IMG/VR virus record: IMGVR_UViG_3300035171_000016 | Span: 1 to 64,000 of that record | Length of the DNA stretch: 64,000 bases | Source of the DNA: a virus | Strand: one strand, 5' to 3' | In this document: in pieces, positions 5,491 through 60,441 of the stretch | How positions within the stretch are numbered: position 1 is the first letter of the stretch | Layout of the letters: the number at the start of each line of letters is the position of its first letter | The notes under the pieces: model-generated | Databases searched by the model: none | What the model was told of the DNA's origin: nothing | What the model saw: the letters and a program-made list of their open reading frames with translations, nothing else | Translations under genes and position numbers: made by a program

Positions 5491-5826
5491 TTAATCAAAA
5501 GCTTCTGGATAAAAACTTTTGGCCTCGGTTTTAGTTATATCTTTTTCATAAGACCCTCGCAAACAAGATGCCGCAACCCATTCATTCGTATTAACAAAAC
5601 ATTCACATTTATCATTCTTCCAGCGATAAATAGTTGTTTTACCTGCGCTTACAATTTTAGTATATTGGTATTTATTATTATCGGATATTACTTTGTCAGC
5701 CCTCTTAACCGCGTCAACCAAACGCAAACTAACTCCGTTCGCATGGCCGCAATCTTCAAGATTTACAGTTGATTTAATAGCGTCTCTCAATTCTTTAAGA
5801 GTCTCAAATAATTTTGTAGTATTCAT
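5491..5826 (-). CDS. hypothetical protein, paralog family B
   Basis: Ends DITKTEAKSFYPEAFD. Confidence 0.65.
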   Translation of the reverse strand: MNTTKLFETLKELRDAIKSTVNLEDCGHANGVSLRLVDAVKRADKVISDNNKYQYTKIVSAGKTTIYRWKNDKCECFVNTNEWVAASCLRGSYEKDITKTEAKSFYPEAFD

Positions 5827-46784: not shown

Positions 46785-47081
46785 ATGCCAAGAATTTTAT
46801 TAAATATAACCGTGAATAATACGCCACAACAAATTACTGGCGCACCCACATTCTTTAGAACGGCTTCGTTTTTTGGTATTAGTGGCTTTAATTCCAATGG
46901 AACACCTAAAAATAATATTCAAACCGTTTATGTAGGTACTGTTTCTGGTGAATGCCCTATGGTAGCGGCGGCTGGCAGTAGTTTTGTTTACAATACCCAA
47001 ACAGATAGAGAAAGAGAAAATTTAGGTAATTGGTTTTATCAAGGAACTACTGGAGACGGATTATATATTGTTTATAATTAA
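46785..47081 (+). CDS. hypothetical beta-rich protein
   Basis: 98 aa, preceded by GTGTAA at 46748-46753. Confidence 0.65.
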   Translation: MPRILLNITVNNTPQQITGAPTFFRTASFFGISGFNSNGTPKNNIQTVYVGTVSGECPMVAAAGSSFVYNTQTDRERENLGNWFYQGTTGDGLYIVYN

Positions 47082-47082
47082 A

Positions 47083-47274
47083 ATGAGATTTAATTTAGCA
47101 GTACTAATAATTCCTGCTATTTTAATGCTTTCTGGTTGTGTTATAGTTTCAAAAAATAGAGTATTTCCTAAAGTTGACTGGTATTGGTCAAAAGACGCAA
47201 TAAACCAAAGACAAGATATAATTGCCGAAAAACAATACGAAAAATCCTATGAAACAAATAAAATAAGTAAATAA
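47083..47274 (+). CDS. small lipoprotein
   Basis: MRFNLAVLIIPAILMLSGC lipobox. Confidence 0.55.
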   Translation: MRFNLAVLIIPAILMLSGCVIVSKNRVFPKVDWYWSKDAINQRQDIIAEKQYEKSYETNKISK

Positions 47275-47529
47275 TTACTTATCTTTTTTATGTTTTAACT
47301 GGTCTTGAAGAACAGCCATTTGAACTTTTAGATTATTTATTTCGCTATTGGCTTTTTGGATTTCTTGTTCTTTCTCGTTTATATGAGACCAAATTAGAGT
47401 TTGGGTATCTTTTTGCTTGTGGTTTTCATTATATAAATCAGTTAGTCCGCCAATTAAAGCTAATATAGAGCCCCAAGAGATAGCGTGGGACTTATATTTT
47501 CTATATAATCTTTTGGTTTGTTTTACCAT
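47275..47529 (-). CDS. TM plus coiled-coil protein
   Basis: Hydrophobic segment then heptad repeats. Confidence 0.55.
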   Translation of the reverse strand: MVKQTKRLYRKYKSHAISWGSILALIGGLTDLYNENHKQKDTQTLIWSHINEKEQEIQKANSEINNLKVQMAVLQDQLKHKKDK

Positions 47530-47567
47530 CTATAGGAATTACACCTATAAATGGCAAAATTTGATTA

Positions 47568-48200
47568 CTATTGAGCTAAGAACCAGAACCAATCTGGATG
47601 ACCTAAATGCTTAATAGTTAACGCTACAGGCATGGGAAGAGGCTCCTTATGGTTAAATAAAGGCTTTAAGCCTAACTCTTCCAAAGGTTTATTTCCACGC
47701 TTACTATTAATTTCGGCATCTACGAACATAAGATTTTCAAAAGTATCTTTTCCGCCGTGACTTTTGGCCTGCTTATGTTCAAGATTTCCTCTTTTAAAAG
47801 GAATTTTCTTGCCAGAATAGCCACATCTTCCGTCCTGCTTCTCGTAAAAGTACATTTTAGTTGGCCTAAACCTTTTTTTAGGTATTTTGCCATAATTTGT
47901 AACGATTACTGAAGGGCAACGAATTGTTAGTTTTGAAGTTCTAACTACATTATCTATTCCGACTCTTGGCTCAACCATTAACCATTCTTCAAAATCTAAA
48001 GCTTGGTAATAATCTAATTCGTTTAAATTTAATGAGCCGTCCTCATTTTTCTTATAAACGACATCAATAGCCTTTGCGGTAATAGTATAGTCGTTAGACT
48101 GGCTATTAAGCGCGACTAAAGCCTTCTTTGGTGAAAGAGTGCCGATACACTGGTAGCCTTTATTCAAGACTAATACTGATGATTTATTTAAATAGTCCAT
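47568..48200 (-). CDS. HNH endonuclease
   Basis: VLVLN..Y, PSVI, CGYSG...NLEHKQAKSHGGKDTFENL.....N..RGN. Confidence 0.8.
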   Translation of the reverse strand: MDYLNKSSVLVLNKGYQCIGTLSPKKALVALNSQSNDYTITAKAIDVVYKKNEDGSLNLNELDYYQALDFEEWLMVEPRVGIDNVVRTSKLTIRCPSVIVTNYGKIPKKRFRPTKMYFYEKQDGRCGYSGKKIPFKRGNLEHKQAKSHGGKDTFENLMFVDAEINSKRGNKPLEELGLKPLFNHKEPLPMPVALTIKHLGHPDWFWFLAQ

Positions 48201-48440
48201 GTTATACTAGTTTCTATTTTATTTTTATTTAATTTGTCCCATTGTTTTAATGCGTAATATATTCTTTTAGTCGCGCTTCCAATTCTTTCTTTAGAAATAT
48301 CTCCGTGTGCATGAATTGTGCTTCTTAGTGCCCCGACAATAGCTTTTTCTAAACTTCCGCGTTTGTTTGTATTAAAATTAAAATTGTTCATTTATTAATA
48401 AAAAATAATAGATAAATATTAAAATGTCAAGAAATTAATT

Positions 48441-48691
48441 GAAACGCAGCCATAATCGCCGTTCTGTTTTATCTCTACATTTATCTCACTTTTCAGTGGC
48501 TAATCTTTATGATTAGCTGCTCCAACCTTTCCTTTACATCGGCCAGCACTAGCCTTTGGAACTTTAGGATTACTGCTAATTTGTGGTATTAATGAACGGG
48601 TGCAAAAGCAAGTACCGTTCTCCCAACATCTGCTATGCAGAGGCGAATTTCCTCAAATCATTTCTGACTTGCGTAGAGTCGCTTACGTTTC
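48441..48691 (-). ncRNA. rnpB: RNase P RNA (compact, about 250 nt)
   Basis: P1 GAAACGT/GCGTTTC; P2 CTCTAC/GTAGAG; P3 hairpin; CR-I GAGGAAATTCGCC; GGAGCA; P15 and P18 (GAAA) hairpins; AGATAAATG; CR-V ACAGAACGGCGATTAT with compensatory P4 TCGCC/GGCGA. Confidence 0.88.
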
Positions 48692-49126
48692 AAAATTTAT
48701 TTTTTCTATAGTAGCGTCTGGATAAATAATTATAATTTTTTTCTTCATTTTCACAGCATACCTTTTGGTAGACCATGTTCCTGACCTAAGTTGTTCAATT
48801 TTTTCTTTAGGACAAACAATTAATAATTCAGATTCGTTAACAATATCTTTATTTCTATCTAAATACGGTTTTGACGGCAAAATTGTTTTAGCTTTACAAA
48901 AGGCTCGTTTAACCTCATTAATTGGTGGATGAATAATAATTTTTCCTAAAAATTTATTCTTATTTTGAATAAAATAAAAAACAGATAAATTATGAGCATC
49001 ATAATCAGCCCCTAAACAATCTCCATGATGAAATTCTCTACAGTCTAACGTAAACAAAAAAATAAAAAATATATTCTTTTGTTCCTGAGTCATTCCTGCC
49101 TGTGTTCCAGTAAATCCTATAACCAT
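48683..49126 (-). CDS. SLOG/DprA-like nucleotide-binding protein
   Basis: IGFTGT, HHGDCLGAD, YL.RN..IV, RSGTWST. Confidence 0.6.
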   Translation of the reverse strand: MVIGFTGTQAGMTQEQKNIFFIFLFTLDCREFHHGDCLGADYDAHNLSVFYFIQNKNKFLGKIIIHPPINEVKRAFCKAKTILPSKPYLDRNKDIVNESELLIVCPKEKIEQLRSGTWSTKRYAVKMKKKIIIIYPDATIEKINFET

Positions 49127-49560
49127 ATAATTTATAATTTCCAATTATCTTGATTATCCTCAAGTCTAGAATTAAACCATCCATAAAAACCAGAAGGAAA
49201 AGAGGCAAATATAATAGACATAAAAATACAAAATAATACTCTAATAGGCCACAATGCTACCCATCCAACCCACCAAGTTATAGTTTTTTTAGTCATATAA
49301 ATATGATAATATTGTTATTTTAAAAAGTCAAGATATATAAAAACAAAAAATCCATCAGAAACTAATCTGATGGATTTGATTTATTAAAAAAATTTATGAC
49401 AATTGTTTTATTACATTTGCCGCAAGATATTGTATCTGGAATAAATCCGGTAGTAGCCCATTTTTGAAAATGGCCGCATTTACATTTTAATTTAAATTGA
49501 GGAACTTGGCCGTATACACCGACCTTGCGACTTCTAATTCTTATTGCGTTTTTCATAAAA

Positions 49561-49635
49561 TGGAGGGAATGGCTGGACTTTAACCAGATTATCTTCTTTA
49601 CGAAAGAAGTGCATCAACATAAATGCTTCAAACCC
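49561..49635 (-). tRNA. tRNA-Thr(CGT), mismatched acceptor stem
   Basis: CTTCT-TTCGTAA-AGAAG; CCA end. Confidence 0.75.
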
Positions 49636-49639
49636 GTAA

Positions 49640-49714
49640 TGGAGGGAAAGCCGGAACTTGCATCCGGTTGACAATATTACCAATATTGCGTTTTACTATA
49701 TAAACCACAATCCC
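49640..49714 (-). tRNA. tRNA-Thr(GGT)
   Basis: CAATA-TTGGTAA-TATTG; CCA end. Confidence 0.78.
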
Positions 49715-49945
49715 ATTTAAGCTATCCAGACATCAATCTATAATTACATCCGTATTTTTCTTTAAAAACTTCGTTTTCTTTTTTACCATGAACTTTTGGC
49801 CAGCCTTGTTCTTCCCATATAATACAATACTCGCAAATACCATGAATAATAATCAAATCACGCCCGCATTCTGGACACTGATTTTTTAGATAATATTTGC
49901 GTCCAAAAGTAAAATCTTTCATATATTTAATTATGTTAGGTAACA

Positions 49946-50025
49946 TGGCGAAGTTGGCGAGAGTCGAACTCGCATAATTTCCAATTATGCACTTACTGTT
50001 TAGGAAACAGAGCCATTACAACTTC
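49946..50025 (-). tRNA. tRNA-Arg(CCT), lacking a D arm, long variable arm
   Basis: GAAGTTG/CAACTTC; CTGT-TTCCTAA-ACAG; GCGAG-TTCGACT-CTCGC; GCCA. Confidence 0.7.
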
Positions 50026-50054
50026 AAAATTAATAATAATTAAAATAACTTCCT

Positions 50055-50336
50055 TTACCATAAATGAGAAAAATCAATCTCTCTGGTTCCAACTTGAATG
50101 CCTATGCTCCCATTTAGAGTCGAAAGATGCGTGGCCGTTAGAAAAGAAAAGAAAAGAAAAGAAAAGAAAAGAAAAGAAAAGAAAAGAAATGAACTATGAT
50201 TAGGACATTCAAAATAGAATAGGTCATTCCCACTTCTTTCTCCAGTTAAGGGGTCGAACTTGATTTCCACAGAATACTCTTTTATAATAAGAGGGCTTCT
50301 GCATTTCTCACAAAAAACATCAGATTTAGTTTTCAT
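50055..50336 (-). CDS. Zn-ribbon-like hypothetical protein containing a pentanucleotide SSR
   Basis: CEKC...CPNH then FLFFS repeats. Confidence 0.5.
   Translation of the reverse strand: MKTKSDVFCEKCRSPLIIKEYSVEIKFDPLTGERSGNDLFYFECPNHSSFLFFSFLFFSFLFFSFLTATHLSTLNGSIGIQVGTREIDFSHLW
50141..50189. repeat. (GAAAA)9+GAAA simple sequence repeat
   Basis: Perfect tandem pentamer read directly. Confidence 0.95.
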
Positions 50337-50352
50337 ATTTTGTTTTATAAAA

Positions 50353-50444
50353 TGGCGGATACAGAAGGGGATGCTCCCTCACTGGCTGTTAAACCAGAAC
50401 ACTTTAGCAAAGTGCCGCGCCAAGCTGATATGCGCCTTGTATCC
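50353..50444 (-). tRNA. tRNA-Ser(GCT)
   Basis: GCACT-TTGCTAA-AGTGT; long variable arm; G73. Confidence 0.85.
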
Positions 50445-50448
50445 AAAA

Positions 50449-50533
50449 TGGTAGCCACGGGGAGATTCGGACTCCCAAACCCATCCGGTTTAAGCGGATA
50501 TGCTGTTCCAGTTCGCAATGAGGGCACGCGGCC
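50449..50533 (-). tRNA. tRNA-Leu(TAA), atypical
   Basis: ATCCG-CTTAAAC-CGGAT; short variable loop; extended D region. Confidence 0.8.
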
Positions 50534-50803
50534 ATTAAATTAACAAAATAAATACCTATAATATACTACCATCAAAACAAAATACAGAACTAATCCGGTA
50601 ACATATAATATTAGTTTAATTAAATCTTTAGAACTTATATTTTGTTCATAAAAATTATTTTCTTTTTCTGGTGGATATTTTGACCAATAATCTCCATCTG
50701 TTTTATACCATCCATCAAGAATGGCGCGATTACGATGTTTTTCTATCCAAGGTTCTTTCATATAAAAAGTATAATACTTTTATGCTTTAAAGTCAATACA
50801 AAT

Positions 50804-50878
50804 TGGTGCGCCTAGATGGTAACAATCCATCTTCTTTCGGGTAAGGGCCGATTGCTTCATCATTAAAGCTTTAAGCGC
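50804..50878 (-). tRNA. tRNA-Lys(CTT)
   Basis: TCGG-CCCTTAC-CCGA (C33); CCA end. Confidence 0.75.
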
Positions 50879-50882
50879 AAAA

Positions 50883-50961
50883 TGGTAGGCGATGCAAGGT
50901 GGGAACTTGCGGCATTTTCTTTGTAATAGAAATAGTCTTAACCCGTCTGACGTAATCGCCC
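50883..50961 (-). tRNA. tRNA-Val(TAC)
   Basis: TTTCT-ATTACAA-AGAAA. Confidence 0.82.
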
Positions 50962-50968
50962 ATAAAAT

Positions 50969-51047
50969 TGGTACTTCTACTATGTTACCAGCATAGATAA
51001 TTAGATTCAGAGTCTAATATAATTAAGGTATTTATATTATAGAAGTA
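50969..51047 (-). tRNA. tRNA-Gln(CTG), very AU-rich, divergent T loop
   Basis: TTAGA-CTCTGAA-TCTAA. Confidence 0.72.
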
Positions 51048-51052
51048 TGAAA

Positions 51053-51130
51053 TGGAGGACACGGGGAATTGGCTGCTCCCATAATGCTCATTACAAATAA
51101 GCTACTTTAAGCCATTTAAGCTACGAGTCC
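51053..51130 (-). tRNA. tRNA-Thr(TGT)
   Basis: GCTTA-TTTGTAA-TGAGC. Confidence 0.78.
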
Positions 51131-51660
51131 ATTAAAAATTATATTCTCTTTCGCTAATTAAAATTCCGTCTCTATAAACTTTGAACCAATCATAGGGCTG
51201 GCTTAATACAAAATTTTCACATTCAATAAAAGTATCTCTATACTCTTCTATTAAATCTAATCCTCGAATTTTGAGTTTAATTAAATATCGTTTCATAAAC
51301 ATCCACTATAATATTCTTCCCACATACCCTTCCAATATTTATCATTTTCTTCTTGGCATACTGGACATAAGATTGCAAAATTACTTTTATCTTCAACGTA
51401 ATTAGTATTTTGGCGACGTTTTATCGCACCTAACTTATTACAACAATCGCATCTAAGTTTTCTTTTCATTTAAATTAAATTTTGAATTAGGATTAGTATA
51501 ACACCATTCACATTGGACTTGAATTTGTATTTGTTCTCCATATTCATTATGAGTAGTTAAGTGTCCTACATACCATCCAACATTATCACAGTGAGGACAG
51601 TCTTGCCCCTCCTTATTACAATGCGAGCCATTTACAAATGTTGTTGGCTCAAACATAAAT

Positions 51661-51737
51661 TGGTCGCTAATCTTGGAATTAAACCAAGTAACTTGTCTTT
51701 ATGAGAGACAAAGCTCAATCAGTTGCGTTTATTAGCG
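51661..51737 (-). tRNA. tRNA-Met(CAT)
   Basis: TGTCT-CTCATAA-AGACA; CGCTAAT/ATTAGCG. Confidence 0.8.
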
Positions 51738-52167
51738 TTTATTAGCGTTTTTTAACTTCGTTTACTTTTACTTTGTAAATTTTAAATTTATTATTAGGTA
51801 ATTTAATCTTAAATGTAAATCCCTTTCCGTATGGTAGATATTTCCCATTAAAATTAATTTCTTTTATTACCCTATATTTTCTATTATAAGAACGATTTAG
51901 CTCTGCTTGTAATCCACAAAGAACTTTATCTCCGAGGGTCAAAGATATTAAATCTGGAATATATTCATTATCAAATTTATTCATAATATAATTCGGTTAT
52001 AAAATAGTTAATGATGGCAACAGCTTCCCACCATAGTAAACATAGAGAAAATAGCAATCCATGATAAGTTAATAGATATATCTTTTAAAATCTTTTTGAT
52101 TTCGTTAAATTGTTTATCGTTCATGTATTGATATTAATATAAAAAATATAAGAAGTCAATATTAAAA

Positions 52168-52243
52168 TGGCCCGGTTTATCCGAGTCGAACGGATTTCTC
52201 CTCCTCTTCAGGGAAGATACATGACCCCACATTAGCAAACCGG
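52168..52243 (-). tRNA. tRNA-Phe(GAA)
   Basis: CTTCC-CTGAAGA-GGAGG; ATCCG-TTCGACT-CGGAT. Confidence 0.82.
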
Positions 52244-52247
52244 AAAC

Positions 52248-52323
52248 TGGCGCGGGTTTCGCTTGAATTGAAATGTATCAACTCAACCAAGTTCCTTTTG
52301 TCTAACTTGGAATAGGAGCCCGC
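52248..52323 (-). ncRNA. tRNA-sized three-way-junction RNA ending in CCA
   Basis: GCGGG/CCCGC-GCCA closing two hairpins (CCAAGTT/AACTTGG and TTGAGTTGA/TCAATTCAA). Confidence 0.6.
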
Positions 52324-52328
52324 ATAAA

Positions 52329-52405
52329 TGGTACAGTCGGTAGGAGTTGCACCCACATAATTCTCCTTAGAACGGAGTTCCCTAATCTATTCGAGGCACG
52401 GCTGC
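52329..52405 (-). tRNA. tRNA-Arg(TCT)
   Basis: CTCC-GTTCTAA-GGAG. Confidence 0.8.
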
Positions 52406-52412
52406 ATTAAAA

Positions 52413-52490
52413 TGGACGACCTATCTAGTCGGGAGCTAGAAAATAGACTTTCAAAGAGTCCTGTGTTTAACCCACTTACACTATAGGTCG
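52413..52490 (-). tRNA. tRNA-Gln(TTG)
   Basis: GGACT-CTTTGAA-AGTCT. Confidence 0.8.
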
Positions 52491-52889
52491 AGCTTTGTGT
52501 GGACAGGTTCCGCCGTTAATTTGCCTACCACAATTACAATTAAAGCATAAAATTCGATAACCGGATGGAAAATTATTTCTAATGATATTAATTAATATAT
52601 TTCTAGAGCCGTTAAATTTTTTTCTTTCTTTGTTTCCGTTATTATTAATATGGTCAACCGTAAGAAATTGATAAGTATCTTCCCCGCAGCATTCACATTT
52701 ATTGCCATAGTGTTCTATTACAGTTTTTCTTATTTTGTTGCAATATCTTTTTGAATTTTCTTTGTAATTGGGGTCTGATTTTGAGCGACATTTCCAGCAT
52801 ACAGAGCGAAATAATGGCTCTCCATTTTCCTTATAATTTGCTATTTCCGCATCTTTTTCTTTACATATTTTACATTTTGGTCTATTCAT
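52476..52889 (-). CDS. HNH endonuclease inserted in the tRNA array
   Basis: CECCGE....LTVDHINNNG...LCFNCN; the stop overlaps the 5' end of tRNA-Gln. Confidence 0.78.
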   Translation of the reverse strand: MNRPKCKICKEKDAEIANYKENGEPLFRSVCWKCRSKSDPNYKENSKRYCNKIRKTVIEHYGNKCECCGEDTYQFLTVDHINNNGNKERKKFNGSRNILINIIRNNFPSGYRILCFNCNCGRQINGGTCPHKARPIV

Positions 52890-52956
52890 AATGGTATTTA
52901 CACTAAATCCATACCACTTTATAAAATATTAAAAAATGATTGTATATATCTATTAT

Positions 52957-53286
52957 TTACACCTTTAATAATGGAAATTTCTTAAAAATATCAGGCCAAT
53001 CTACCCTAGGGCAAAAGACTAATGCAATTTCTTGATTATCTAGGCCGGATTCGGTAACAATAATATACTCACTGCCATTATCATTCTCGAAATTCTTTAA
53101 ATATTCAAATTCATCATCTGATACCTCTACCACAACCTTCCTAAATGAATTATTAATCCATTCTTGATAAGATGCTCTGGCCGCGAACTTTAAATGCGCC
53201 ATAAGCACCCCATGAGCCGCCCCAAGGACTTTATGGCTTGGTATTGACTGTTTAATACAGATATACATTTTTGAGTAACTATTCAT
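52957..53286 (-). CDS. peptidyl-tRNA hydrolase, Pth2-like
   Basis: KMYICIK...AAHG...W....RKVVVEV...IALVFCPR...LL; start corrected to avoid tRNA-Glu. Confidence 0.7.
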   Translation of the reverse strand: MNSYSKMYICIKQSIPSHKVLGAAHGVLMAHLKFAARASYQEWINNSFRKVVVEVSDDEFEYLKNFENDNGSEYIIVTESGLDNQEIALVFCPRVDWPDIFKKFPLLKV

Positions 53287-53305
53287 AATTATATTGTTTA
53301 GAAAT

Positions 53306-53384
53306 TGGTATTCGTGTGGAGACTCGCACTCCATAGATATTCTGGGTGAAAACCAGACCGCTCGACGACTTTGCGCTCACGAAC
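53306..53384 (-). tRNA. tRNA-Glu(TTC)
   Basis: TCTGG-TTTTCAC-CCAGA. Confidence 0.82.
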
Positions 53385-53394
53385 ATTAAATTAT

Positions 53395-53682
53395 TTATTG
53401 TAATAAATGCTTATATGAATTTGTCATATCTTTTAAAATACTATTTAATTCATAATTTGTAATACTATTAAAATCTAAATTTTGTGTTTTTATTTCATAT
53501 AACCTTCCACTTGCATATCCTAATTCGGTGGCAGAAATTATTGCCTCAAAATACGTTTTTCTTTCTGCTTTAAGGGCGGCGGATAAATCATAATTATCTT
53601 TATCTCTATCTCTATCTCTATCTTCTCCACAGCCAACGGTTAATATTAAAGTAGTTAAGGCTATTATTAAGTTTAGTTTCAT
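53395..53682 (-). CDS. putative lipoprotein
   Basis: MKLNLIIALTTLILTVGC lipobox. Confidence 0.6.
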   Translation of the reverse strand: MKLNLIIALTTLILTVGCGEDRDRDRDKDNYDLSAALKAERKTYFEAIISATELGYASGRLYEIKTQNLDFNSITNYELNSILKDMTNSYKHLLQ

Positions 53683-54560
53683 AGTTTTTTATTTTATTTT
53701 TTAGAAGTTTTAATATTGTATTTTTTAACTACTTGTGTTGTTTTGTAATTTATACTACAATCTTTTATATAGTTTTCAATCCATAATTCGGCCTCTACTA
53801 AAGAAATCTTAGACGCCACGCATTTACCTATATGATTAATAGATGGTTCTGAAAAATTTTTCCATATAAAGAAATCTCTAAATTGAGGAACATAATAATT
53901 ACCATCTTTGATTATTCGTAATTTCATAGTTTTTTAATTTCATCTATTACCGTTCCGTATATTTTATATACTTTTTTACCATTTTGAGAAATTGATTCTA
54001 ATTCTCGGTTTTCTTTAAGTAATTTTAATATCTTAAATTTCATTGCATCTTGACCGTCAGAAAAACCATCGCGCCAAGATTCTTCTATGTCTTGTTTATG
54101 AATATCCATATTTAAAGTTTATTGATTTTTTTTATTACCGTTTTTAGTTGTGGATAGTCAAACTTCCATTTTTCACAAAAATATTTTAAAGATTCATAAT
54201 TTTTATTTCTTAAATCATAAAAAGGAGAATTAACGCTATTACCTTTATGCTGTTCATACTGGCTATCCGCCTTCTGATATGCAGACATTAAAGCATTACA
54301 TTCTTTTTTATTTAAATTCATATTTATTTAAATTCATATTTATAATTTAATTCCATCAAAATCAACAGAATTCAATTCAAACTCTTCTGGATTAGATTTA
54401 CATTCTTTCGCCTTTTCAAAGGCTAGTTTTTCTAAATCTTCTATAGTTAATTCAACTCTGCAAGTATCGCAGCCAGTCCAGTTTTTTCGCTTCATCCATA
54501 CTGTAGTTTTAATTGTCATAGTTTTATGATAATATAAAAAATTATAAAAGTCAATAAAAA

Positions 54561-54636
54561 TGGTAGCCTATGTTGGCTCTGCCCCAACCACCTTTCCCTT
54601 ATCAAGAGATTGCTCTGCTAAATGAGCTAATAGGCC
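54561..54636 (-). tRNA. tRNA-Ile(GAT)
   Basis: TCTC-TTGATAA-GGGA. Confidence 0.82.
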
Positions 54637-54643
54637 ATTAAAT

Positions 54644-54717
54644 TGGTATTCCTAAACGGTTATGCTCCGTTTTCTTGGATTTGAGAAACCCACGAGATAC
54701 TATTACTCCATAGGAAC
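54644..54717 (-). tRNA. tRNA-Glu(CTC)
   Basis: TGGGT-TTCTCAA-ATCCA. Confidence 0.8.
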
Positions 54718-54724
54718 ATTAAAT

Positions 54725-54803
54725 TGGTGCGTTCGGAGGCTTGGGATTCCTCGTTCAGTCGCTTAAAAGGCGATGTTTCTTAACCCATTTGAATTACGAA
54801 CGC
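54725..54803 (-). tRNA. tRNA-Lys(TTT)
   Basis: TCGC-CTTTTAA-GCGA. Confidence 0.82.
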
Positions 54804-54881
54804 ATAAAATTAATTATCCGATATTTTTATTCGCCTCGGGGACGCCGAAAGGCAATTACGCTTTCTCGGCAGGGCGAAAAT

Positions 54882-54970
54882 TGGCTGGGGCAACAGGGAT
54901 TAAACCTGTAGGTGAGATTTCTCTCGGAAGTTTAACAAACTTCTGCGTCTATCAATTCCGCCACACCCCA
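54882..54970 (-). tRNA. tRNA-Asn(GTT) with a class II body
   Basis: GAAGT-TTGTTAA-ACTTC; variable arm GAGA-GAAA-TCTC; U1-A72; G73. Confidence 0.82.
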
Positions 54971-55053
54971 ACAAATCGTTTCTCCGCCATCCTACACAGG
55001 ATACTTTATTTTTTCTAAGCAGAAGCGATATTCTGCGCGGGTACTAAATTAAA

Positions 55054-55143
55054 TTGTTGTAAGTGTTCAATACAGTTCAGACCGGAGCAGCGGGAATAAG
55101 ATGCCGCCGCATTCTCTTCACCCTATGACCTAAGTTACAACAA
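55054..55143 (-). ncRNA. unknown structured RNA
   Basis: Closing stem TTGTTGTAA/TTACAACAA; inner GCGGCGG/CCGCTGC; motif GGTCATAGGGTG. Confidence 0.5.
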
Positions 55144-55145
55144 AA

Positions 55146-55220
55146 TGGAGCACTTGGAGAATTTTGAAATCTCGACGTTCACGTTGGAAGCGTGACACTC
55201 TGCCTCTGAGTTACAAGTGC
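55146..55220 (-). tRNA. tRNA-Gly(TCC)
   Basis: TCACG-CTTCCAA-CGTGA; U73. Confidence 0.87.
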
Positions 55221-55227
55221 ATTAAAT

Positions 55228-55318
55228 TGGGTGCAGAAAGTGGAGTTAAACCACACATAGCGAAAGTTAATTCGCCTGCCTTATGAGGGCAGTTAGCGTC
55301 TCGCGGCTTGTTTCTGCA
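55228..55318 (-). tRNA. tRNA(CAT) with long variable arm, possible 8/4 fold
   Basis: CTGCC-CTCATAA-GGCAG; GCGAA/TTCGC variable arm; TGCAGAAA/TTTCTGCA. Confidence 0.75.
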
Positions 55319-55330
55319 ATTCTAATGAAA

Positions 55331-55415
55331 TGGTCGGGATTGGGGCGTTCGCATCCCCACGGATTTCTCACCAGTTCCCAAAACTGGCCCGGAACTACTT
55401 ACGGTCTAAATCCCG
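55331..55415 (-). tRNA. tRNA-Pro(TGG)
   Basis: CGGGATT/AATCCCG; CCAGT-TTTGGGA-ACTGG. Confidence 0.82.
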
Positions 55416-55690
55416 ATAAAATATTACTTTAAAACTTTTTCAAAATGCGGCCATTCATAATCTCCTTCTGGCCAAGGAGTTCTTTCTATTCCTAGATTTT
55501 CATTTAATTTTATCTTTCCGATAAAACAATTAACGTGTTTTGCGGCCTTTCTAGCTTTTGCGATACTATCAAAAATACCAACAAACTCCCATTCTAATTC
55601 TTTATTGATAATATCAGGAACATATCCTACTAAATATAATTGTTTCATAGTTTTATGATAATACTAAAATTTTGCTTTGTCAACTAAAAT

Positions 55691-55768
55691 TGGAAGCCAG
55701 CCGCAGTAACGCTCTGCGTAAACAAGAATTTTGCAGATTCCGGGGTTAATCTTACTCCCTCGCTGGCT
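55691..55768 (-). tRNA. tRNA-Cys(GCA)
   Basis: GGAAT-CTGCAAA-ATTCT; U73. Confidence 0.8.
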
Positions 55769-55943
55769 ATTTAAAGCTTAAATCGTAGAACCAACAAATA
55801 AAGCCAAACCAATTGGAATCCATAATAGATGTCCAACACTGAATGCGGCCAAGACAAAACAAACAATTGCACCGATTTTAAGTAGTATTTTATAATCCAT
55901 ACCTTATTATATACTTTTATCTCAAAAATTACTATTAAGTTTT

Positions 55944-56246
55944 CTACTTACTGTTTTTAAAAAATGCTTTTATAAAACCAAAAATAAAAATAGCCATGAA
56001 CAAAACTATTAACATTTTTAATGGAAAAGCTATAAATATATCAAATATAGAACAGTTACTTCCAAAACCAAAGGTATTCCATAAAAAGCTACCAATATAA
56101 TAAAACGAAACAACAATACCAGAAAATAAACACAATCCAATTATAATTTTTAATGGAGCTATTAATAATTCAGTCCCTCCACTAGATTCATTTATTAGTT
56201 TTATAGCCTTGTCTTGCTGAAACTTATTTTGTGGTACAAATATCAT
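55944..56246 (-). CDS. membrane protein
   Basis: Two hydrophobic segments. Confidence 0.55.
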   Translation of the reverse strand: MIFVPQNKFQQDKAIKLINESSGGTELLIAPLKIIIGLCLFSGIVVSFYYIGSFLWNTFGFGSNCSIFDIFIAFPLKMLIVLFMAIFIFGFIKAFFKNSK

Positions 56247-57119
56247 ATATTATTTTTTAATTTTTAAATTCATAGGAAATGCTGGAACTGAACTTGGCCA
56301 ATTATTCATTATAGAATCGCTAAAAATATTTCTCATACTAAAGCTATCCGGCAAACTTCTGTAACACGTTTGCATATTTTTCATCCATTGGTCAATTTTA
56401 CAATCAAAATAAAAATCAAAATATAATTGAGATTCTTTCATTTAATCTCTCCGGTATAAACAATTTTTCTTTGCTTTTTGTTCTTAGAAAATAACCTATC
56501 CGACATATAATCAAGACTATTTTGTATAGTATTAAAATAAACTTTATATCCATCTTCTGTAAAGAAAGATTGAAAATAAGAATCAATTTTACACTGTGGA
56601 TAAAAATGATTTTCGTCTTGCAATACTCTAATCTTGTATTTTTTCATTTTTGGTTACTCTTACTGATTTTTTTAGCTTTAACAACTCTTACTTGATTATT
56701 TACCATTACTCTACCTACATTTTGGCCATCCATAGATACAGTATAATATCTATTGTCCGGCAAGTCAAGAGCCTTCCTTACTTTTTCATCGGCAGCTAAT
56801 GGATTTAAACAGTATTCTTTAAATAGGTCTGGCGGCATTTGTTTCATATTATCTAGTATCTTGTAATGGAATTATCTCAGTAATTTTAATAGCAACTTTA
56901 TTTTTAATTAATTTATCTGCTATTTTCTTTGTAAAATAAAATTCTACACCAGCCTTTACAAGTCGCCTTCCACTTTCACCTAATAAGCCGGTAAGAAAAA
57001 TAGCTTCGGGGTCAATGATTTTAATCCTAACTGCATCTGGAACATAAGCTAGTTCTTTTAATAACTCTGGAACCACCATGAATTGTAGTTTAATTTTTTT
57101 CATAAGATTTTATTTAAAA

Positions 57120-57214
57120 TGGCGGATAGTGCATCGAATCGAACGCGCACCGGCCTTTCGGCGCGGTCAACTTTTCAAGAGTTGTGGGGCAAACCAATAT
57201 CCCACCTACTATCC
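57120..57214 (-). tRNA. tRNA-Ser(TGA)
   Basis: CAACT-CTTGAAA-AGTTG; long variable arm; G73. Confidence 0.85.
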
Positions 57215-57316
57215 ATAAAATTTATTTAGATTATAATTTCTTAGACAATAGACTAAGTATGTTTTCTTACATCAAAAGACTTTTCAAAGTATTTAGTCTT
57301 TTATAATTTCTAAAAA

Positions 57317-57393
57317 TGGCGGGACTAGCCGGAATCGAACCGAGCTTTCTTACCGTGACAGGGTAAGCGATGAAACCACTCTCTTTTAATCCC
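57317..57393 (-). tRNA. tRNA-Asp(GTC)
   Basis: TTACC-CTGTCAC-GGTAA; G73. Confidence 0.87.
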
Positions 57394-57403
57394 ATAAATT
57401 GAA

Positions 57404-57571
57404 TTACCAATAAACTTTATTACCAATCCGAGTCTTGTCGGTATTGGCAAAGCGTTCTATTAGGCGAGCGCATCCTATTCAATTCTATCGGCAGAATAAA
57501 CTGCTTACAATGATATTGAATTAAGTCCTATATAATATATGAGAACTATTTAATTATGGTGTTATTGGTAA
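57404..57571 (-). ncRNA. unknown multibranched RNA (about 170 nt)
   Basis: 10-bp closing stem TTACCAATAA/TTATTGGTAA with internal hairpins. Confidence 0.5.
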
Positions 57572-57573
57572 AA

Positions 57574-57657
57574 TGGTCGCCCTGACAGGACTTCAACCTG
57601 CAAAACCACCCGTTCTAAGCGGGCAAGCTGTGGCGTTCGCTACAAGGTCACAGGGCG
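57574..57657 (-). tRNA. tRNA-Leu(TAG), atypical
   Basis: GCCCG-CTTAGAA-CGGGT; short variable loop; extended D region. Confidence 0.8.
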
Positions 57658-57661
57658 GAAA

Positions 57662-57746
57662 TGGTCGCATCGCGGAGACTTCAACTCCGAAAACTCTACG
57701 TTTTGAATGTAGTGGCTGTAGCAATTCGCGCTTATGTCACGATGCG
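57662..57746 (-). tRNA. tRNA-Leu(CAA), atypical
   Basis: CTACA-TTCAAAA-CGTAG; short variable loop; extended D region. Confidence 0.78.
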
Positions 57747-57750
57747 GAAA

Positions 57751-57829
57751 TGGTATCCCATAGAAGCTGGCGACTTCTGACCAATCCCTTATAAAGAGAA
57801 CGCTCTTGAGCCATGTGAGCTAATGGGAT
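57751..57829 (-). tRNA. tRNA-Ile(TAT)
   Basis: TCTC-TTTATAA-GGGA. Confidence 0.78.
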
Positions 57830-57834
57830 ATAAA

Positions 57835-57911
57835 TGGTGCATCATAAAAGAGTTAAACTTTTATCTAACTGGTTCGTATCCAGTTGCTTTATTCAATTAA
57901 GCTAATGATGC
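57835..57911 (-). tRNA. tRNA-Arg(ACG)
   Basis: ACTGG-ATACGAA-CCAGT. Confidence 0.82.
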
Positions 57912-58089
57912 GTTAAATTTAATTTATAATAAACCTTTTATTTTTTCTATCAAACTACACTTACATTCTTTCTTGCTCTTTCGGCAATATCTACAAAAAA
58001 ATTCTCGTACATATTCACAGTCGGAACACCAACCGTGGCAACATTTACTGTTTCTTTGTCCTATATCTAATTTATATTTTTTCATTAAA

Positions 58090-58165
58090 TGGTCAGGTGG
58101 CCGGGTGTCGAGCCCGGTTAGCAAGTTTCACACACTTGGAGATTAGCCGTTATCCTACGCACCTG
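58090..58165 (-). tRNA. tRNA-His(GTG), lacking G-1/C73
   Basis: CAAGT-GTGTGAA-ACTTG; A73. Confidence 0.75.
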
Positions 58166-58175
58166 TTAAAATAAC

Positions 58176-58240
58176 AATCGGTATGCTTCCATTACACTAA
58201 GGTTTCGCTCCTATTTGGACTTGAACCAATACCTCCGATT
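58176..58240 (-). ncRNA. circularly permuted mini tRNA-like RNA (T arm, closed acceptor, D arm)
   Basis: AATCGG...TTGG-TTCAAGT-CCAA...AGG-AGCGAAA-CCT...GTGTAATGGAAGCAT...CCGATT. Confidence 0.6.
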
Positions 58241-58244
58241 TAGA

Positions 58245-58333
58245 TGGTGGCGCGGTGAAAGTAACGCTCTTTTTGCTTAACTTCTCAACTATTTTAGCAA
58301 AGGTTTTACAGACCCTCGTTGAGGACACCGGCC
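58245..58333 (-). tRNA. tRNA-Tyr(GTA), lacking a D arm, long variable arm
   Basis: AGGGT-CTGTAAA-ACCTT; A73-CCA. Confidence 0.72.
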
Positions 58334-58334
58334 A

Positions 58335-58556
58335 TTAAATTTTACTTATAAATCTTTTATTAAAATATAAATTATCTTTTTTTAATTTAATAAACTCTTC
58401 AATTTTATTTGCAAGATTAACTAGTTTATCATCTTTAAGATATTTGAAACATCCGTTTTTAATTAAGACTCCTATAATATCTTCTCCTTCTTGTGCTGAT
58501 AGGTTATCAAAAATAAGACCTATTGATATTTGTTCGTTTTTTGTTAGTTGTTTCAT
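58335..58556 (-). CDS. hypothetical protein
   Basis: Start corrected to MKQLTK because the longer ORF runs through tRNA genes. Confidence 0.55.
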   Translation of the reverse strand: MKQLTKNEQISIGLIFDNLSAQEGEDIIGVLIKNGCFKYLKDDKLVNLANKIEEFIKLKKDNLYFNKRFISKI

Positions 58557-58559
58557 AAA

Positions 58560-58637
58560 TGGTGGAGAATTTGGGATTCTAACCCAACTGGATTCGCATT
58601 GCAAGTGCGACGACCACAACAAGCAGTCCCATTCCCC
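58560..58637 (-). tRNA. tRNA-Ala(TGC)
   Basis: TCGCA-CTTGCAA-TGCGA; G3-U70. Confidence 0.88.
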
Positions 58638-58750
58638 GTAAATTAAAAACCGCAATAGAAAGATTTTAGTTATACTCATAAATGAGTCGCGGTTAAATTT
58701 TGCTCCGAGGGCCGCGTGAATACGTCTATTCAGCCTAGGGAGCGGTAAGA

Positions 58751-58827
58751 TGGCACAACGAATGGGAGTCGAACCCATCTATTACCGTTTTGGAGGCGGC
58801 GGCTTCACTCAACTTAGCTATCGTTGT
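58751..58827 (-). tRNA. tRNA-Trp(CCA)
   Basis: Loop CTCCAAA; ATGGG-TTCGACT-CCCAT; G73. Confidence 0.85.
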
Positions 58828-58834
58828 ATTAAAT

Positions 58835-58908
58835 TGGAGCATCATAACGGTATTGAACCATTTTATCTAACTTGGCAAGCTAGGGCATTACATTTATGCT
58901 AATGATGC
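58835..58908 (-). tRNA. tRNA-Gly(GCC)
   Basis: CTAGC-TTGCCAA-GTTAG; U73. Confidence 0.85.
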
Positions 58909-58911
58909 GAT

Positions 58912-59062
58912 AACTGCTTTCGCAGCCGCCATATTATCTCCGCGATAAGCTCGGAGTCCGGGTTCTGCTTTCGCATAACACCCTATGACCGATTAGTGAT
59001 TTTTTATACCATATCACCGGATTTTACTTACCGGAGGCTCACTGTTTGAGTTCTAAGCCTTA
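58912..59062 (-). ncRNA. structured RNA preceding the first tRNA of the array
   Basis: Two TGC-GAAA-GCA GNRA hairpins; CCGG/CCGG, GTGAT/ATCAC and CTCCG/CGGAG stems; motif GGTCATAGGGTG. Confidence 0.55.
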
Positions 59063-59078
59063 AATTCTTACTTTCTAT

Positions 59079-59107
59079 ACTCTAATACCTAAAATCTGTT
59101 TTGTCAA
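59079..59107 (-). promoter_or_regulatory. sigma70-like promoter immediately downstream of the terminator
   Basis: TTGACA-N17-TAGAGT. Confidence 0.6.
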
Positions 59108-59109
59108 AT

Positions 59110-59140
59110 AAAAAACCACCGAATCTTTTTTCGGTGGCTT
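59110..59140 (-). terminator. intrinsic terminator (attenuator)
   Basis: AAGCCACCGAA-AAAAGA-TTCGGTGG-TTTTTT. Confidence 0.88.
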
Positions 59141-59165
59141 CCAAATTTTCTTTTATTTCTCTATT

Positions 59166-59173
59166 AAGCCACC
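59166..59173 (-). promoter_or_regulatory. antiterminator strand
   Basis: GGTGGCTT, 1 nt after the leader stop, is perfectly complementary to the terminator 5' arm AAGCCACC (59133-59140). Confidence 0.78.
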
Positions 59174-59174
59174 A

Positions 59175-59282
59175 TTACACTTTTTTATCTCCCGTCCAAT
59201 TGCGTTGAATATAATGCGACGGAGAAGTACCTTTTATGAGGCATTCTCTAAACATCGCTAAACTGGTCATATCAACTGTCAT
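59175..59282 (-). CDS. leader peptide containing all 20 amino acids
   Basis: MTVDMTSLAMFRECLIKGTSPSHYIQRNWTGDKKV*; 30 distinct codons in 35; below the ORF-track size cutoff. Confidence 0.8.
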   Translation of the reverse strand: MTVDMTSLAMFRECLIKGTSPSHYIQRNWTGDKKV

Positions 59283-59465
59283 ATTTATACTATAGTACCA
59301 TTTTACACAAAAGTAAAGTAAAATGTGAAATTTTATTTTAATTTCTTTTTAATTTCTTTATTTATAGCATCTTTTAGTGCCTCTAATATTATTCCATCTA
59401 TTTTGTCAATATATCTTTTTTCTTAGATAATCCGTCTAAATATTTTAATTGTTCAATATTTAATT

Positions 59466-59744
59466 TCATTCTAAATCCTTATTTGATAAGAATATATCAA
59501 TAGCATTAATCGCATTATATAAGTATTTATTGCTTTCTTCTGTAGTAAATCCACCATCGCCATCTGGATGGGCTTCATAAACTATTGTATCGTTAACTTT
59601 AGCAGTAAAATGGCCGTGCCTTAATCTTAAATAAGCTACTTTTTCATCATTTAAATATACATTATATTGTTCTGGACACATAAAACAGGTTTGTTCTAAT
59701 GTATATTTTCCTATTTGTATTAATGGATATTCAGATTCAATCAT
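59466..59744 (-). CDS. hypothetical phage protein
   Basis: TC..CPEQY.V...VAYLRLRHG; start set to MIESEY. Confidence 0.65.
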   Translation of the reverse strand: MIESEYPLIQIGKYTLEQTCFMCPEQYNVYLNDEKVAYLRLRHGHFTAKVNDTIVYEAHPDGDGGFTTEESNKYLYNAINAIDIFLSNKDLE

Positions 59745-59748
59745 AATA

Positions 59749-60441
59749 TTATAATTTTTCAAAAATAGCCATAGAATTGCCACCATTTTCGTCTTTATTA
59801 AGCTTTCTTGTGCCTGAAACCTCTTTAATTAGCTTCCATCCGGCCCTTACCTCATTAATTAGTCCTAATTTATCTAGGGCCCCTCTAACATTAATATATT
59901 CTCCGCAATGACCCTGCCAATCGGTTCCGGTCTCTTCTACGCCAGAATCGTGAAACATCACTATTCCGCCAGATTTAACCTTCTTTTCAATGGCTTTAAA
60001 ATCGTTCATTACGCATTTTGAGCCATGACACGCATCAATTATAACTAAATCTAAGCTATCAGGAGAAATATTATCAACCCACGCTCTAGGGTCTTCTCTT
60101 AAAACTAGGACGGAATTATATTTTTCCGTGGCAAAGGATTCTAGGAATTTTTCATCATTTCCAGAATTATTTATAAGAAGTTCTTCTGGTTTAAATATTT
60201 GATTTATTTTGGCAAAATTAACATCAGCAGAGCCTATTAGGTCTAATCCGATTGTCAGCCAGCTATGTGTTTTAATGTTTTCTGAAATAATATCTCTAAT
60301 AGCTCTGTGTGTTACGGCGGTAGCTACGCCAATTTCTAAAAAGATATATTCTTCCTTATTTCTAACATGATTAGAAATAATATTTTCTAATTCCACCTCA
60401 AGTCCTTCGGTTCTAATTCCCCATGCTCTATTTTTATTCAT
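59749..60441 (-). CDS. class I SAM-dependent methyltransferase
   Basis: FLEIGV, DLVIIDACH, GGIVMFHD. Confidence 0.7.
   Translation of the reverse strand: MNKNRAWGIRTEGLEVELENIISNHVRNKEEYIFLEIGVATAVTHRAIRDIISENIKTHSWLTIGLDLIGSADVNFAKINQIFKPEELLINNSGNDEKFLESFATEKYNSVLVLREDPRAWVDNISPDSLDLVIIDACHGSKCVMNDFKAIEKKVKSGGIVMFHDSGVEETGTDWQGHCGEYINVRGALDKLGLINEVRAGWKLIKEVSGTRKLNKDENGGNSMAIFEKL

Follow-up and report, generated by a model that had tools for sequence, protein, structure and literature searches.

Attenuation by leader peptides is known from amino-acid genes, antibiotic-resistance genes and stress genes. The enterobacterial attenuators of this kind include trpL, hisL, leuL and pheL, together with the multivalent thr and ilv leaders. 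T-box riboswitches, which need no translation, bind uncharged tRNA by means of Stem I and the T-box bulge. Little is known of how phages regulate their tRNA arrays, and a search of the full-text literature yielded no account of leader-peptide attenuation for tRNA genes, those of phages included. The mycobacterial whiB7 uORF attenuator is reported to be turned on when any of many genes for amino-acid biosynthesis, tRNAs or tRNA synthetases is knocked down, in a response that depends on the uORF coding sequence, so that it acts as a broad sensor of decoding problems (PMC10274678). Among the antibiotic-responsive uORF attenuators of B. subtilis is vmlR (PMC9226507).

The element described here heads a tRNA array of a virus and probably (at a probability of about 0.7) serves as a transcription attenuator that is worked by the ribosome and reports how fast decoding proceeds in general. 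Like the enterobacterial attenuators, it has a short leader ORF and, behind it, an antiterminator and a terminator helix that exclude each other, and its stop codon is placed so that a finishing ribosome would mask the 5′ strand of the antiterminator and a stall further upstream would leave that strand free. It is also of similar scale, with a transcript of around 175 nt in the DNA analysed. Unlike the enterobacterial systems, it precedes tRNA genes rather than genes for biosynthetic enzymes, is borne by a phage, apparently on a leaderless mRNA, and in the DNA analysed has a promoter behind the terminator. The runs of regulatory codons that mark the classical attenuators are absent from its leader, and a complete or near-complete set of amino acids is found instead. 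The proposed course from uORF stalling to antitermination resembles that of whiB7 and vmlR. In contrast, the whiB7 uORF is alanine-enriched and controls a transcription factor, whereas here all amino acids are represented and the output would be tRNA supply. As in T-box riboswitches, the status of tRNA would be tied to the choice between terminator and antiterminator; T-boxes, however, bind that tRNA directly, and no T-box family of Rfam matches positions 47000..59500, even at E <= 1.

The window (the whole stretch of 64,000 nucleotides that was analysed) comprises the first 64 kb of a viral contig of 147,760 bp (G000; 31% G+C), and nearly all genes in the window are carried by the minus strand. 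The contig encodes DNA polymerase, ribonucleotide reductase, a large terminase and a DnaB-like helicase, and its source is a large, divergent and uncultured tailed phage. In the whole contig, around 40 genes are preceded by the arrangement TTGAC[AT], 16 or 17 nt, TAnnnT, about 6 nt and ATG. Examples in the window in which the ATG lies about 6 nt after the −10 element are found at 55683..55646, 54554..54517, 50796..50759 and 49331..49294. This promoter-to-ATG spacing implies leaderless or nearly leaderless mRNAs, and the phage seems to rely largely on such mRNAs. A Shine-Dalgarno-like motif stands before only 12 of the 126 long ORFs, so that the lack of such a motif at the leader is no argument against its translation.

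The leader ORF (59175..59282, minus strand) consists of 35 codons and a TAA stop codon. Its predicted promoter (59289..59317, minus strand) has a −35 element TTTACT (59317..59312), a 17-nt spacer and a −10 element TATAGT (59294..59289), with 6 nt between this element and the ATG; the placement implies that the transcript would be leaderless or nearly so. Promoter, 6 nt and ATG are thus arranged as in the around 40 genes mentioned above, and since this layout matches the usual promoter-to-ATG layout of the phage, the leader ORF looks like a genuine unit of transcription and translation. An overlapping alternative promoter (TTCACA-18-TAAAAT after TGTG; 59300..59329, minus strand) contains the GTGTAA that an earlier, sequence-only reading of this DNA had noted upstream of the ORF. 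The A/T-rich −35 region of this alternative promoter is found again at G000:143717-143750, and in contig L003 a similar TTTTGTGTATAAT follows the homologue of the gene upstream of the leader. That upstream gene (59466..59786, minus strand) encodes a 106-aa protein that has invariant MCPEQY and YLRLRxG motifs and belongs to no Pfam family; in seven or more other viral contigs, its relatives adjoin tRNA arrays or lie within them. At 59330..59470 (minus strand), after the 106-aa gene, there are two very short frames, one of 23 codons starting from an ATGA overlap and then, after an A-run, one of about 23 codons in a different frame. Taken together, the two resemble one gene for around 45 amino acids that is split by a frameshift at AAGAAAAAAGAT, which could be a sequencing error or programmed slippage.

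The sequence-only reading had pointed to this ORF, at 59282-59175, as containing all 20 amino acids in its first 29 codons, with ATG as the only codon repeated in codons 1-31. We confirmed both points in the sequence, and the Thr, Ser, Ile, Arg, Leu and Gly codons that it had listed are all present. The twentieth kind of amino acid is reached at codon 29, and 10 kinds occur only once. Codons 1-31 comprise 29 distinct codons, and the whole ORF comprises 30 in 35. Codon adaptation of the leader is low (CAI 0.57, 10th percentile), a value compatible with a non-optimised and with a deliberately diverse leader alike. A search of 1.84 billion representative proteins gave no relative of the leader peptide. 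Four matches in this search were rejected as homologues, being repeat proteins with scores summed over several stretches. The peptide is also not among the called genes in a collection of 15 billion proteins, and a search with the leader peptide of the closest related locus (L181, see below) returned that peptide alone.

The stop codon TAA (59177..59175) is followed by a T at 59174 and by GGTGGCTT at 59173..59166, and the latter is the complement of the 5′ flank and 5′ arm of a strong intrinsic terminator (59110..59137, minus strand). This terminator is composed of CCACCGAA, the loop AAAAGA and TTCGGTGG (59137..59116), followed by six T residues (59115..59110). Its 8-bp stem CCACCGAA/TTCGGTGG encloses a 6-nt loop, 13 pairs are formed in the minimum-energy fold, and the hairpin has a free energy of −11.5 kcal/mol. 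The 5′ strand of the predicted antiterminator (59160..59173, minus strand) has GGTGGCTT as its core, and its 3′ strand (59133..59145, minus strand) has the core AAGCCACC at 59140..59133, of which CCACC is common to the 5′ arm of the terminator. With its start 4 nt from the first base of the TAA, the 5′ strand would be masked by a ribosome terminating there.

The claim that GGTGGCTT, one nucleotide after the stop codon, makes the two structures mutually exclusive was upheld by folding and by shuffling. The GGUGGCUU:AAGCCACC helix is present in the minimum-energy fold of the nascent RNA until the T tract has been transcribed, and the terminator wins only afterwards. When the upstream 35 or 60 nt were subjected to dinucleotide shuffling, none of 400 shuffles gave a competing helix as strong. 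Of the genome's six strong terminators on the gene strand, this one alone has a strong upstream competitor, with a gain of −12.7 kcal/mol compared with −0.2 to −5.7 kcal/mol elsewhere. Counting against a switch, the terminator becomes around 5 kcal/mol more stable than the alternative fold once the T tract is paired. No upstream segment that would sequester the antiterminator was found, and nothing inside the ORF is complementary to GGTGGCTT. Because no such segment, corresponding to the 1:2 protector hairpin of enterobacterial attenuators, was found, untranslated RNA should read through by default, unlike that of trp. A hairpin inside the ORF (TCTCCGTC/GACGGGAGA) had been suggested as a pause site; the pair does exist, but it is bulged and absent from the minimum-energy folds. 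The L181 locus has a similar TCCCC...GGGGA pair.

Relatives of this locus were reached through an 84-aa protein encoded in the array (56849..57103, minus strand), which belongs to no Pfam family and has more than 200 homologues (62–89% identity), usually inside phage tRNA arrays. In contigs carrying these homologues, a blind screen of every ORF of 20–60 codons ending at most 90 nt from a terminator gave six distinct relatives with a short ORF and then a terminator ahead of tRNA genes. Two further contigs, L195 and L197, repeat L194 and were not counted as distinct. The leader of the window (59282..59175) has 35 codons and 20 kinds of amino acids. Those of L181 (5482-5607; 41 codons), L189 (1094-1222; 42 codons), L192 (5628-5762; 44 codons) and L194 (1730-1870; 46 codons) likewise have 20 kinds, and those of L191 (2003-2158; 51 codons) and L186 (776-934; 52 codons) have 19 and 18 kinds, respectively. 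The closest relative is L181, which has a G+C content of 28% and an array that opens with the same order, Gly-GCC and then Trp.

Other routes led to no further leaders. A DNA search with the leader region gave no match in 50,697 phage records; scans of IMG/VR with the neighbouring methyltransferase, with the terminator–promoter junction and with two back-translated peptide patterns returned nothing, and the pattern GGTGGCTT..AAGCCACC, which is its own reverse complement, hit only unrelated hairpins. The relatives reached via the family of the 106-aa upstream neighbour are without a leader, and in the closest of them, L003, no tRNA array follows the gene. Ten more distant array-bearing phage loci have no comparable leader. 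Two GC-rich contigs, G001 and G004, were rejected as relatives, since they are not close.

In all six relatives the order is the same as in the window: promoter, short ORF, antiterminator at the end of the ORF, terminator and tRNAs. The sequence-only reading had staked its case on homologous loci keeping both the open frame and the complementarity, and the six related contigs keep both, with compensatory changes in the arms. The minimum-energy fold before the terminator contains the antiterminator in all seven loci, the end of the ORF being paired with a segment that overlaps the 5′ arm of the terminator. The 5′ strand begins between −21 and +4 nt from the stop codon in all seven, a position at which, given the known footprint of the ribosome, a terminating ribosome would mask it. 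The overlap between antiterminator and terminator arm is 3–11 nt over the seven loci (just 3 nt in L189), and the distance from the stop codon to the T tract is 45–59 nt. An equivalent terminator is found in every one of the six relatives.

The arms themselves differ among loci. The end of the ORF and its partner are GGUGGCUU and AAGCCACC in the window, GGGAUUAAC and GUUAAUCC in L181, GGCUGCU and AGCAGCC in L189, GGUGGG and CCCACC in L186, and AAGGCGG and CCGCCUU in L191; in L192 and L194, GCGGCGG faces a partner of the CCGCCGC type. Arms that differ and yet remain complementary are a case of three-way compensatory change. Compared with shuffled sequences, the helix has p values of 0.01 in the window, 0.03 in L181, 0.01 in L189, 0.01 in L186, 0 in L191, 0.21 in L192 and 0.003 in L194. 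In 83 control pairs of ORF and terminator situated away from tRNAs, the median p was 0.59, and 2.4% of the pairs reached p <= 0.03.

The sequence-only reading had called for an estimate of the chance of finding 20 amino acids in 29 codons. This chance is around 1e-4 per ORF; when 29 or more distinct codons in 31 are required as well, it falls to between 1e-6 and 1e-5 per ORF. Among Markov-random genomes of the same size and composition, 30–48% contain a 29-codon pangram somewhere in the six frames, and the amino-acid pangram alone is weak evidence. The window locus is the only 29-codon pangram in the six frames of the genome and also its only locus of joint diversity; joint diversity of amino acids and codons occurred in one of 60 random genomes.

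All 20 kinds of amino acids are present in five of the seven leaders (35–46 codons), and the other two have 19 and 18. Over the seven leaders, which are related, so that these tests of diversity are not fully independent, three kinds are missing in total, compared with around 22 expected from base-composition models. The P values per leader are 0.0009 for the window, 0.0024 for L181, 0.016 for L189, 0.022 for L192, 0.018 for L194, 0.27 for L191 and 0.54 for L186. Only two of 86 control ORFs have all 20 kinds, both of them 50–51 codons long and in G+C-rich DNA. The diversity of ORFs near tRNAs is higher than that of the rest (Mann–Whitney, p = 0.0027). Rare residues such as Cys occupy different alignment columns or are absent, as would be expected if selection acted on their presence and not on their position. 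The search for related leaders thus bore out a complete or near-complete amino-acid set and covarying arms, but diversity at the level of codons is not kept. The numbers of distinct codons are 28 of 41 in L181, 32 of 42 in L189, 33 of 52 in L186 and 35 of 51 in L191, and the strict design with one of each codon that had been proposed is therefore not conserved. In L189, Cys is encoded only once, by the last codon, which lies within the antiterminator arm, and a ribosome stalled at that codon would leave the arm covered. Some residues, accordingly, cannot serve as sensors. The leaders of L186 and L191 are without Cys; in both, a tRNA-Cys gene lies upstream of the leader (46-120 in L186 and 1522-1596 in L191), outside the unit that the leader would control. 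The L186 leader is also without Arg, and no tRNA-Arg was detected downstream in the L186 locus.

The window leader is homologous to that at L181:5482-5607, and the two have in common the block RECLIKGxSP, with five synonymous codon differences; that is, the third position differs in five of the nine codons for identical residues. Along the whole alignment of these two leaders there are 14 identical residues, eight of which have different codons, and between L186 and L191 there are 25 identical residues, 10 with different codons. The pN/pS ratio is 0.5–0.6, with synonymous sites (pS) saturated. On these comparisons the leaders appear to carry a coding signature, their amino acids being conserved across synonymous change. 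The motif W..SYNQF is conserved in four other leaders. No motif is common to all seven, in which one Pro column alone is invariant, and identity to the window leader ranges from 16 to 50%. The conserved blocks RECLIKGxSP and W..SYNQF suggest some constraint on the peptide itself.

The tRNA array of the window extends over 49561..58908 (minus strand), with Gly-GCC (58908..58835) as its first tRNA and with small, separately promoted protein genes interspersed. It had been described as 33 tRNAs for all 20 amino acids. The array is indeed large; around 20 of its tRNAs are firm, around 29 are obtained at relaxed thresholds, and 19 amino acids are covered. ARAGORN at default settings detects 12 tRNAs (48441..59000, minus strand), and relaxed settings together with Rfam add around 17. 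Many of the array tRNAs are therefore non-canonical, as the default settings miss around 17 of them. The Pth2 gene and RNase P RNA that had also been assigned to this region are weak at best, the former as a sub-threshold Pfam match to PTH2 (E 0.002) and the latter as an 18-bit match compared with a cut-off of 84. In 47000..59500, Rfam at E <= 1 gave no match apart from tRNA-like ones, and no family was found on the leader region.

Some further structured RNAs occur between the switch and the first tRNA. A conserved small hairpin RNA, GGCTTAGAACTC...ACAGTGAGCC (59036..59059, minus strand), opens a structured stretch of around 160 nt before the first tRNA of the window, and it lies directly 3′ of the switch in three phages: the window, L181 (around 5692-5715) and L192 (just after 5816). 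The structured RNA of around 160 nt has two GCGAAAGC tetraloop hairpins and no match in Rfam. A second conserved structured RNA (CGTAGAGGCG.GCCGT...CGGAGACGCC...) is located in the corresponding interval of L189 (1330-1400) and L191 (2270-2340).

Directly after the terminator of the window there is a predicted promoter, TTGACA-17-TAGAGT (59079..59107, minus strand), and at least seven further promoters lie within the array (56768, 55683, 54554, 52159, 50796, 49331 and 48430), most of them heading small protein genes. The next strong terminator downstream of that of the leader is at 49374..49348, so that read-through from the leader could cross the array. The idea of a leader that gates the complete array is not borne out in this window: since promoters follow the terminator and lie inside the array, the switch would add read-through only and would not be a full gate. 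Regulated genes without a promoter of their own, as expected for an attenuator, are thus not found in the window, and are found, for the first unit, in L181, L189, L191 and L192. In these four loci no promoter was found in the stretch from the terminator to the first downstream RNA, and their first tRNA unit looks truly gated.

From the anatomy of the element, its statistical support and its conservation we infer that the leader is translated, in which direction it controls transcription and what physiological signal it reads, as follows. TTTACT-17-TATAGT would start an almost leaderless RNA, whose first codon opens the 35-codon ORF. The segment just after the stop codon (GGUGGCUU...) would pair with AAGCCACC and thereby remove part of the 5′ arm of the terminator, allowing read-through into the tRNAs. 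An undelayed ribosome at the last codons or at the stop codon would cover GGUGGCUU, the terminator would form, and the transcript would end at the T tract. If the ribosome were delayed upstream, or if there were no ribosome, the 5′ strand of the antiterminator would be free and transcription would proceed into the tRNA genes. As every amino acid is present, read-through should increase when almost any class of codon is decoded slowly, and possible causes of such slowing would be loss or cleavage of tRNA, poor charging or a general block of translation. In the window, the switch would add, to the output of the constitutive promoter after the terminator, transcription that originates at the leader promoter and in the upstream operon. 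Translation speed would thus probably set the amount of extra transcription that reaches the tRNA genes.

A broader proposal holds that these leaders form a widespread phage family selected as a roster of all amino acids, in which any stall opens a replacement set of tRNAs, making it a general sensor of tRNA depletion that includes attack by host anticodon nucleases. We regard this proposal as tentative, with the odds somewhat against it; the link to anticodon nucleases, in particular, is a conjecture that the sequence-only reading had already put forward.

Several other explanations have to be set against an attenuator that reports general decoding speed. The ORF may be an ordinary small protein gene of the phage with its own promoter and terminator, in which case the terminator would only insulate the ORF and the upstream operon from a separately promoted array, and the complement would be incidental or would serve the stability of the RNA 3′ end. 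Such a gene would not be out of place here: terminator-then-promoter junctions recur in this genome (49374/49331, 21757/21707 and 8231/8198), many small leaderless ORFs are present in the phage, and blocks of amino acids are kept with synonymous change. The competing helix, however, occurs at no other terminator of the genome, is kept with altered sequences in six relatives and always at the end of the ORF, and is not seen in the control pairs of ORF and terminator. Several relatives, moreover, are without a promoter after the terminator, and the peptide has no relatives among the 1.84 billion representative proteins apart from the repeat-protein artefacts. We therefore consider an ordinary gene unlikely. 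Mere coincidence, in which a diverse ORF came by chance to lie beside a terminator with a fortuitous upstream complement, would accord with the frequency of 29-codon pangrams in random genomes of like size and with the fact that the diversity statistic was picked after the fact. It is at odds with the rarity of joint codon and amino-acid diversity (one of the 60 random genomes), with a helix that beats all 400 shuffles and with the conservation of ORF, switch and diversity alike in the relatives, and is very unlikely.

The element may also be a true attenuator whose signal is a specific nascent-peptide or ligand-dependent arrest at a conserved motif, as in TnaC, SecM or the Erm leaders, with the full amino-acid set as a by-product. 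The identity of RECLIKGxSP between the window and L181 despite five synonymous changes, and the retention of W..SYNQF in four other leaders, are what such an arrest would predict. Against this, the seven leaders have no single motif in common and only the one invariant Pro column, the diversity of five of them is far above expectation, their rare residues shift position, and their placement before tRNA genes fits a sensor of decoding. A specific arrest is thus improbable, and a ribosome-operated attenuator that responds to decoding in general is the reading that we prefer.

The element is short and self-contained, and its arms covary, so that it is directly testable, and it could serve as a general reporter of translation stress. 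If the proposed attenuator is real, a leader in which all amino acids are represented would sense overall decoding capacity in a compact form, linking the tRNA supply of the phage to demand, and it would possibly connect the tRNA-cleaving defences of the host with the answer of the phage.
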